Source of the DNA: Escherichia phage PMBT16
DNA length: 64,000 nucleotides
Sequence record: PP554575
Reading direction: 5' to 3' (one strand)
Shown here: positions 25,062 through 25,562 of the stretch, piece after piece
How the letters are laid out: the number at the start of each line of letters is the position of its first letter
Numbering within the stretch: position 1 is the stretch's first letter
Translations under genes and position numbers: made by a program
Notes under the pieces: generated by a model
Told to the model about the DNA's origin: nothing
Database searches by the model: none
The model's input: only the letters and a program-made list of their open reading frames with translations

Positions 25062-25562
25062 GTGAAAATTAAGATCTTTGCTATTATTTTGAGCGCACTT
25101 TTATCGCTGCCTGTTGTTGCAGCACCAAAACAAAAAGTATATCATACTTGCAAGCCATCAGATACTAAGGAAAACATTCTGGCATGCAATATCTACAGGG
25201 AAGCTAGAGGAGATGGCACGATGGGTATGCTGGCATCTGGGTTTGCCACACTAAACAGGAAATCCCACCCTAAATACCCAGACACTATAAGAAAGATTGT
25301 CTACCAACCTAACCAGTTTTCGTGGACAAACCACGGCAAAACTTTTAAGGTGACAGAAAAAGATTCATGGGATCACGCTAAAAGTCTTGCAAAGATGCTT
25401 CTAAAGGTCTATAATAACAACCATGTTGCATACATGGCTATGGACATAACAGGTGGAGCAACACACTACCATACAACCAAAGTACGACCGAAATGGGCAA
25501 AAAAGATGCAGAGGACAGCTCAATTCGGGAGCCATATCTACTACAAGGAGCGCAATAAATGA
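25062..25562 (+). CDS. Secreted SleB-type cell-wall hydrolase (candidate signal-peptide endolysin)
   Basis: GTG start; N-terminal signal peptide MKIKIFAIILSALLSLPVVAAP; Hydrolase_2/SleB core CNIYREARGDG ... ATLNRKSHPKYPDTIRKIVYQPNQFSW. Confidence 0.65.
   Translation: MKIKIFAIILSALLSLPVVAAPKQKVYHTCKPSDTKENILACNIYREARGDGTMGMLASGFATLNRKSHPKYPDTIRKIVYQPNQFSWTNHGKTFKVTEKDSWDHAKSLAKMLLKVYNNNHVAYMAMDITGGATHYHTTKVRPKWAKKMQRTAQFGSHIYYKERNK

Follow-up and report, generated by a model that had tools for sequence, protein, structure and literature searches.

The closest described relative of the gene treated here is gene 2 of phage rV5, a 'cell wall hydrolase' of 166 aa and pI 10.0 (rV5 Table S3); the same gene in Escherichia phage MaxBurger (Bas54), a Vequintavirus, is annotated as a 'putative cell wall hydrolase' (bas54_0065). 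Published papers and GenBank records already cover the gene and its annotation, its signal peptide and how it is conserved within the Vequintavirinae. More distant relatives are carried by other large lytic phages. The Certrevirus genomes have the hydrolase gene and lack rII genes altogether, and Buttimer et al. (2020, PMC7344957) reported that expressing the CB7 orthologue in E. coli was toxic. In PAK_P3-like phages the hydrolase gp151 exists beside gp028, which is followed by four holin and spanin candidates; in T5-like Salmonella phages an M15 peptidase adjoins the holin and the SleB-domain protein is far away; Phapecoctavirus has a GH24 enzyme and a Hydrolase_2 protein.

Lys44 of Oenococcus phage fOg44 and the SAR endolysins P1 Lyz and R21 are exported independently of a holin and are restrained until lysis; Lys44 is a muramidase, and P1 Lyz and R21 are T4-lysozyme-like. 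On the restraint that exported endolysins require, see also PMC7143992.

The window, that is, the whole stretch of DNA that was analysed, comprises 64,000 nt of the 136-kb genome of Escherichia phage PMBT16 (PP554575). Nucleotide comparison places it in an rV5-like Vequintavirus: the 3 kb around the hydrolase gene is 100% identical to MaxBurger and 93–99% identical to >100 further rV5-like genomes, and megablast of the whole window against MaxBurger gave eight aligned blocks of about 91–99% identity, with indels, about 97% being the overall figure; no other record compared was a better match. The hydrolase gene is a conserved core gene, found in about 115 Vequintavirus records and annotated in >100 rV5-like genomes. 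Read from the sequence, 25062-25562 (+) is a genuine ORF of 166 aa with a GTG start, and its TGA stop shares the four letters ATGA (25559-25562) with the ATG of rIIA. The features of the region are as follows.

20871..20899, plus strand: sigma-70-like promoter TTGACT-17-TATAGT, equivalent to rV5 P010 (consensus match only; rV5 Table S4)
25026..25052, plus strand: GC-rich, intrinsic-terminator-like hairpin CCCCGC-UUCG-GCGGGG, then AUUUUCUAUUU, directly 5′ of the hydrolase RBS (terminator scan)
25053..25056, plus strand: Shine-Dalgarno GGAG, 5 nt 5′ of the GTG start (read from sequence)
25062..25121, plus strand: predicted signal peptide, aa 1-20 (MKIKIFAIILSALLSLPVVA), with a putative signal peptidase I site after VVA
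25122..25562, plus strand: mature SleB/Hydrolase_2 catalytic domain, aa 21-166, and stop codon (Pfam, PDB sequence match, AF2 and Foldseek)
25149-25151, plus strand: Cys30 codon of the hydrolase, probable disulfide partner
25185-25187, plus strand: Cys42 codon of the hydrolase, probable disulfide partner
25200-25202, plus strand: Glu47 codon of the hydrolase, putative catalytic residue (alignment with SleB motif)
25559..27541, plus strand: rIIA homologue (PHROG 612, 3e-124; HATPase_c_3 domain)
27552..28757, plus strand: rIIB homologue (PHROG 609, 1.3e-61; start as annotated in the nearest genome)
28757..30127, plus strand: Dda/PIF1-like helicase, first gene of the replication block (Pfam and PHROG matches; Certrevirus-like loci)
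about 53014..53385, plus strand: homologue of the MaxBurger 'putative holin' bas54_0115 (95% aa identity)

Primary sequence, modelled structure and predicted active site agree in assigning the protein to the SleB/CwlJ Hydrolase_2 family. Pfam Hydrolase_2 (PF07486) matches aa 51-161 with 70.4 bits (cut-off 27) and spans nearly the whole profile (positions 2-100 of 100); it is the sole Pfam match, PG_binding_1 being absent, and the protein has a single domain. The PHROG match is to PHROG 938, 'endolysin' (1.6e-27). Searched by sequence, the PDB returned only the SleB catalytic domains 4f55 and 4fet (E 2e-6). An AF2 model from the single sequence was unusable (pLDDT 47) and was replaced by one built from a 108-sequence alignment (pLDDT 93.9), for which Foldseek against the PDB gave E≤0.001 only for the same two entries, at TM 0.76–0.79.

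E47 aligns with the Glu in the SleB YGESRGE motif, the catalytic residue in the SleB literature. Neither of our hydrolase alignments (43 and 108 sequences) shows any variation at E47, R66 or W145, and in the larger one Q85, S87 and P143 are invariant as well. With the SleB fold and these invariant residues, the hydrolase looks catalytically competent. Just N-terminal of the catalytic helix is a pair of cysteines, Cys30 and Cys42 (H-x-C ... L-A-C-N-I-Y-x-E), which is kept in the nearest clade and is a probable periplasmic disulfide.

At the N-terminus, MKIKIFAIILSALLSLPVVA is followed by APKQK; the n-region carries two Lys, position -5 is Pro, and -3 to -1 read V-x-A; the h-region of 15–17 residues is strongly hydrophobic (mean Kyte-Doolittle 2.7) and has no Gly. 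Signal type and cleavage site were judged by inspection of the n, h and c regions and by the -3/-1 rule, a heuristic under which the segment is built like a cleavable Sec signal and not like a SAR domain. Calls of cleaved signal versus SAR domain or anchor can err in either direction, as T4 RI illustrates (PMC8385771). An earlier, sequence-only reading of this DNA had described a 166-aa protein with a signal peptide and a SleB/Hydrolase_2 core; the ORF, the Pfam score and the AF2/Foldseek result bear this out, with the signal resting on inspection.

Comparison across homologues is the stronger argument for export. A word-indexed protein search gave only 10 matches, and an exhaustive HMMER scan with a profile search was needed, the scan yielding 11,355 clusters at E≤0.001. 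An N-terminal hydrophobic segment is present in 130 of the 150 nearest 50%-identity cluster representatives, and a signal-like segment in 74 of 80 viral-contig loci with a hydrolase homologue, many of these N-termini being rich in Gly, Ala, Ser and Thr and SAR-like (for example MSRAVNITSGLLTMSGLAAVAVTL). The segment is absent from the homologue of Vibrio phage VEN and from a few others. Orthologues in KP12-like Vequintavirinae, Certrevirus, phi92-like Stephanstirmvirinae and T5-like Demerecviridae have signal-like N-termini with AXA-type ends (VLA/K, ALA/K, AQA/E and SHA/T, the slash marking the putative cleavage site). With Vequintavirus this makes five phage lineages whose N-terminal signals have no sequence similarity to one another. 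Because a Sec-type signal is present and is kept across lineages, the hydrolase would not be a canonical holin-dependent cytoplasmic endolysin; such an identification was also rejected for the replication-proximal locus, the separate lambda-R-type endolysin of relatives (below) and a PAK_P3 homologue that is not late-specific.

The relatives have another enzyme for lysis. MaxBurger bas54_0202 (156 aa), which lies outside the region equivalent to the window, matches the lambda R lysozyme 1am7 (E 3e-56), and this lambda-R-type endolysin is found at ≥95% identity in at least 79 phage records; rV5 gp89 has been described as an 'obvious lysin' (rV5 paper). Rz/Rz1-like spanins in the nearest genome adjoin the terminase gene, also outside the window region. 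The annotation of the equivalent region in the nearest genome has no endolysin in the window; since the window differs from MaxBurger (about 91–99% identity), it is from relatives that we infer a separate endolysin. Within the window, 28 kb from the hydrolase, is the holin candidate, a protein of 123 aa with two N-terminal TMDs; the 'putative holin' label of bas54_0115 is the BASEL annotation, and its family-level support is a PHROG of unknown function only. No holin or pinholin adjoins the hydrolase, whose neighbours are a cytoplasmic acidic protein (24632-25012) and rIIA.

Given the lambda-R-type endolysin, the spanins and the separate holin candidate of the relatives, the hydrolase is probably not the main endolysin of the phage. 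A sole secreted endolysin of the Lys44 type is likewise improbable beside this canonical second endolysin. The sequence-only reading had seen no canonical endolysin or holin in the window: for the endolysin this agrees with the nearest genome, and for the holin it does not, in view of the putative holin at 53014-53382. Its suggestion that the hydrolase might be a secreted endolysin cannot rest on the lack of another, given the lambda-R-type endolysin and Rz/Rz1 spanins of relatives; when 64 kb of a 136-kb genome show no endolysin, this does not mean that the phage has none.

The hairpin at 25026-25052 ends 10 nt before the hydrolase start codon and is identical to rV5 terminator t003, which was predicted with ARNold at -16 kcal/mol (rV5 Table S4). 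Its fold z-score, calculated from this one sequence, is only -1.57. A hairpin with a T-run occurs at the same position, with other stems, in KP12-like loci (AGCCCC/GGGGCT), in Certrevirus (AGGCTCAGT/ACTGGGCCT) and in another Vequintavirinae-like locus, and this conservation of position with differing stems argues for a function better than the z-score does. Instead of attenuating transcription, the hairpin could serve RNA stability. The promoter at 20871-20899, about 4 kb upstream, heads the rightward gene block that includes the hydrolase. Hairpin and RBS lie too close together for a promoter to fit between them, and a transcript that starts at 20871-20899 would have to pass the hairpin to cover the hydrolase, rIIA and rIIB. 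A sigma-70-like site within the hydrolase ORF (25387-25415) was considered as a separate promoter for rIIA; promoter-like sites in the region are not commoner than in shuffled sequence (21 against 19.4 expected), and we therefore make no claim for it.

Non-ATG start codons recur. The hydrolase begins with GTG in Vequintavirus and with TTG in KP12-like copies, in four further viral loci (L013-L015 and L018) and in phi92-like copies; GTG or TTG starts are found in four lineages, and the Certrevirus start is ATG. The conserved hairpin, the GTG/TTG starts and the reported toxicity of the CB7 orthologue together suggest that selection has kept the output of a dangerous protein low. The earlier idea that an exported hydrolase would need tight control fits these three observations.

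Direct timing data come from PAK_P3 gp151, a protein of about 36% identity with a longer, TMD-like N-terminus in a Pseudomonas phage. The gene lies between ligase and helicase and is transcribed already at 3.5 min. Counted among phage reads, its late/early log2FC of 0.62 is not significant; that of the neighbouring DNA helicase is similar at 0.29, that of gp028 in the lysis cassette 3.3 and that of a tail fibre gene 7.2. A literature search on the transcriptomes of Vequintavirus phages and on the function of the hydrolase found nothing direct, and the phi92 structure paper does not mention a hydrolase.

As the sequence-only reading had said, the hydrolase gene lies directly 5′ of rIIA and rIIB, for which we have the PHROG 612 and 609 matches and the ATGA overlap. 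Hydrolase and rIIA are probably translationally coupled, the overlap arguing for co-expression of the two in Vequintavirus. The further suggestion that this adjacency hints at function finds no support in comparison. Among the 80 viral loci, rIIA/rIIB lie ≤8 kb from the homologue in only five, all of them Vequintavirinae with ≥52% identity; three Certrevirus-like loci (L016, L017 and L032) have a Dda-type helicase within about 0.5 kb 3′ of the hydrolase and no rII match, and rII genes are absent from the T5-like, phi92-like and PAK_P5 hydrolase contexts. With five of 80 loci, and none in Certrevirus, T5-like or phi92-like phages, the rII adjacency would not be a conserved functional link; on the gene orders compared, the constant feature is a place at the head of, or inside, the replication module. 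On the other side of the hydrolase, the 24632-25012 gene is confined to Vequintavirus (115 records by tblastn). rV5 Table S3 lists T5.083 as its homologue; a conserved two-gene module with the hydrolase was rejected after BLASTP against the upstream neighbour in T5-like phages gave E 0.51.

We propose, with moderate confidence, that the hydrolase is an exported, accessory, non-virion enzyme that is not late-specific. Its gene would be transcribed as part of the replication-proximal early/middle block, which runs hydrolase-rIIA-rIIB-Dda helicase, a timing that we infer for this phage, and its output would be damped by the hairpin directly 5′ and by the GTG start. The protein would then be exported through Sec independently of a holin, its signal presumably being cleaved, and would probably gain the Cys30-Cys42 disulfide in the periplasm. 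There it would cut murein with Glu47, by lytic transglycosylase chemistry if the analogy with SleB holds. The effect might be a gradual remodelling or pre-weakening of the sacculus that gives faster lysis after the holin fires, or wall turnover, or both; the enzyme would act alongside the late holin-endolysin-spanin pathway and not in its place. In any particular physiological pay-off we have much less confidence than in the exported accessory enzyme as such.

Other explanations were weighed against this one. A role in entry, which the sequence-only reading had also raised, is unlikely, and we find it barely credible that the hydrolase is a virion-associated entry lysin. Muralytic tail proteins are common in phages, but none of the five expected hydrolase tryptic peptides was found in rV5 virion MS (19 proteins), and the orthologue CB7_83 is absent from CB7 virion MS (26 proteins), two proteomes shallow enough that the absence carries moderate weight. 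In addition, Sec export would take the protein out of the cytoplasm, where virions assemble, and the nearest genome, as annotated, places the gene apart from the structural block and lists other tail-associated wall enzymes. Of the two observations that the sequence-only reading had set against its own proposal, a canonical endolysin cassette elsewhere and the protein in particles, a separate endolysin is present in relatives and the protein was not seen in rV5 or CB7 particles. A Sec-secreted endolysin functionally tied to lysis-timing control by rIIA/rIIB would account for the signal peptide, the coupling to rIIA, the PHROG 'endolysin' match and the lack of an endolysin inside the window; we consider it very improbable given the lambda-R-type endolysin and spanins of the nearest genome, the lysin of rV5, and the rII linkage in so few loci. 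Somewhat less improbable, and still clearly unlikely, is a SAR endolysin, in which an uncleaved N-terminus would tether an inactive enzyme until depolarisation by a holin or pinholin released it. The Gly/Ala/Ser/Thr-rich N-termini of many viral homologues and the long, TMD-like N-terminus of the PAK_P5 protein speak for it, and in some phages a Hydrolase_2 protein is apparently the annotated endolysin. The hydrolase itself has a short, strongly hydrophobic h-region without Gly that ends P-V-V-A/A, no pinholin adjoins it, and its gene is in the replication block, with a separate endolysin in relatives, all of which count against tethering.

Two further readings keep the enzyme in the periplasm and give it another purpose. 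As an auxiliary metabolic enzyme, with no part in lysis timing, it would feed anhydromuropeptide recycling by cleaving murein and so raise amino-sugar and nucleotide-sugar pools. Late in PAK_P3 infection UDP-GlcNAc-type precursors rise 2–3-fold, which Chevallereau et al. tie to possible wall degradation by gp151 (PMC4933390), and gp151 transcription is early and constitutive; the precursor link is a correlation only, however, the benefit to the phage is unclear, and the apparent damping of expression is left unexplained. We regard this as unlikely, though with some chance of being right. The enzyme might instead serve inter-phage competition, superinfection control or wall change around envelope-spanning structures. 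T4 Spackle and RI are early exported periplasmic proteins with roles of this kind. Early periplasmic export in T4 is thus a precedent (for RI, see PMC8385771), and the status of the hydrolase as a core gene in the Vequintavirus records is also in favour; no conserved partner gene accompanies it, the upstream neighbour being a Vequintavirus-only gene, and we rate such a purpose as very unlikely.

For the favoured reading of an exported accessory enzyme, what is new here is modest and comparative: export conserved without conservation of sequence, a terminator conserved in position, recurrent non-ATG starts, and a repeated place among replication genes in phages that also have a canonical endolysin. 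Found in four unrelated lineages, these features point to a shared pre-lysis function, as far as genome comparison can. A broader proposal is that exported, damped Hydrolase_2 enzymes in the early/replication modules of at least four unrelated lineages of large virulent phages (Vequintavirinae, Stephanstirmvirinae, T5-like Demerecviridae and PAK_P3-like phages), each with a canonical endolysin besides, carry out a distinct holin-independent 'pre-lysis' remodelling step; this we put forward tentatively, and on balance it is doubtful. If true, such a step would affect lysis speed, cell size, burst or wall recycling, and it is not recognised as a general phage feature. A wall pre-weakened or recycled before lysis would add a step to the holin-endolysin-spanin model, and it would bear on the choice of enzybiotics, the enzyme reaching and attacking Gram-negative murein from within the periplasm. 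Beside a normal endolysin, several unrelated groups of large lytic phages retain a second, self-exported wall hydrolase that is encoded among replication genes and apparently kept at low expression.

SleB needs a cortex with muramic delta-lactam, and E. coli has no muramic delta-lactam. The catalytic domain of Bacillus SleB (4f55, 4fet), a germination-specific lytic transglycosylase, has the same fold as the hydrolase at about 23% identity, and the phage protein, unlike SleB, has an extra N-terminal extension with the Cys pair. An identification with Bacillus SleB proper was rejected, the hydrolase having neither the N-terminal PG_binding_1 domain nor the germination context and being encoded by a coliphage whose host has no cortex. 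Lys44, P1 Lyz and R21 resemble the hydrolase in the holin-independent export of a muralytic enzyme; they differ in being the sole endolysin, in lying in lysis cassettes and in their folds.

The hydrolases of T5-like phages and Stephanstirmvirinae (phi92/Phapecoctavirus) are, like that of the window, signal-bearing single-domain Hydrolase_2 proteins, and there too a canonical endolysin (M15 peptidase or GH24) coexists, with the hydrolase genes far from the holin; unlike the window hydrolase they have 37–41% identity to it, no rII neighbours and other flanking genes. PAK_P3 gp151 and PAK_P5 gp150, each a 'cell wall hydrolase domain protein', share the Hydrolase_2 domain in a replication module with the lysis cassette (gp028) separate, whereas their identity is about 36%, their N-terminus longer and TMD- or SAR-like, and their host Pseudomonas. 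Nearer still is the Certrevirus SleB-like protein (CB7_83/CR3_087), at about 42% identity, with a signal peptide, a hairpin 5′, a Dda-like helicase 3′ and non-virion status (PMC7344957); in contrast to the window, Certrevirus has no adjoining rIIA/rIIB, a small 2-TMD ORF (a holin candidate) nearby and an ATG start. rV5 gp2 and its Vequintavirus orthologues, such as MaxBurger bas54_0065, are 166 aa long and 98–100% identical to the window hydrolase, and they share its neighbours (MoxR ATPase, hypothetical protein, terminator t003 and rIIA). Between rV5 gp2 and the window hydrolase nothing material differs: one and the same gene sits in two slightly different genomes.

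Comparison of the whole window with MaxBurger (Bas54, MZ501093.1), its nearest annotated relative and also a Vequintavirus, shows a mosaic relationship: identity reaches 100% at 24600-27600, outside which it is 91-98.7%. The stretch 14340-14790 is left unaligned, and alignment is poor at ~57.7-59.6 kb. The MaxBurger record has no annotated CDS in the ~2.5 kb from 92785 to 95298 (approximately window 58000-60500). This CDS-free stretch is the site where gene orientation flips in MaxBurger, and here the alignment with the window is at its most divergent. The rV5 paper marks an ORF-free 'non-coding' box, which is possibly the same stretch.

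The 24600-27600 region is also matched by 16-20 'Campylobacter phage' records (GenBank MG065635-MG065690, host C. jejuni). Across this region these records share 97-99% identity with Vequintavirus genomes from E. coli, which makes mislabelling or contaminant assembly the probable explanation.

Within its N-terminal ~100 residues (window 27552-27860), rIIB holds two tandem ~40-aa repeats, YEHFKTRKEARDRRAELEKKGF... and REDFETREEARLFRYGLEDNGK.... In a Pfam search the repeats matched the SPOR domain at 19.3 bits, below the cut-off of 21. SPOR domains have denuded peptidoglycan as their ligand. Because rIIB lacks an export signal, the SPOR likeness of its repeats may reflect merely a common beta-alpha-beta fold.

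In the Certrevirus CB7, the class II holin candidate CB7_82 overlaps the hydrolase gene (PMC7344957). Pectobacterium phage DU_PP_I, another Certrevirus, encodes a 66-aa protein with two TMDs (L006, its hydrolase locus, 5060-5260) two genes 3′ of the hydrolase, with a 216-aa ORF lying between them. This small protein is probably the counterpart of CB7_82. No counterpart of it was found beside the hydrolase in the window.

Inside the hydrolase ORF of the window is a sigma-70-like site, TTGCAA-17-TATAAT (25387-25415, 10 of 12 matches). It lies 145 nt 5′ of the rIIA start, and could serve as a separate promoter for rIIA. Sigma-70-like sites in the hydrolase region are no more frequent than in shuffled sequence.

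At ~3820-3890 of its hydrolase locus (L005), the phi92-like phage ESCO32 carries a GGGGGA/TCCCCC hairpin 5′ of its TTG-start hydrolase. After this hairpin, and still 5′ of the hydrolase, comes a sigma-70-like TTGCAA-N17-TACAAT site. This order of sequence elements suggests a terminator followed by a promoter, rather than read-through, for the ESCO32 hydrolase. In this the phi92-like phage would differ from the Vequintavirus arrangement, for which we infer that transcription from a distant promoter reads through the terminator hairpin just upstream of the hydrolase.
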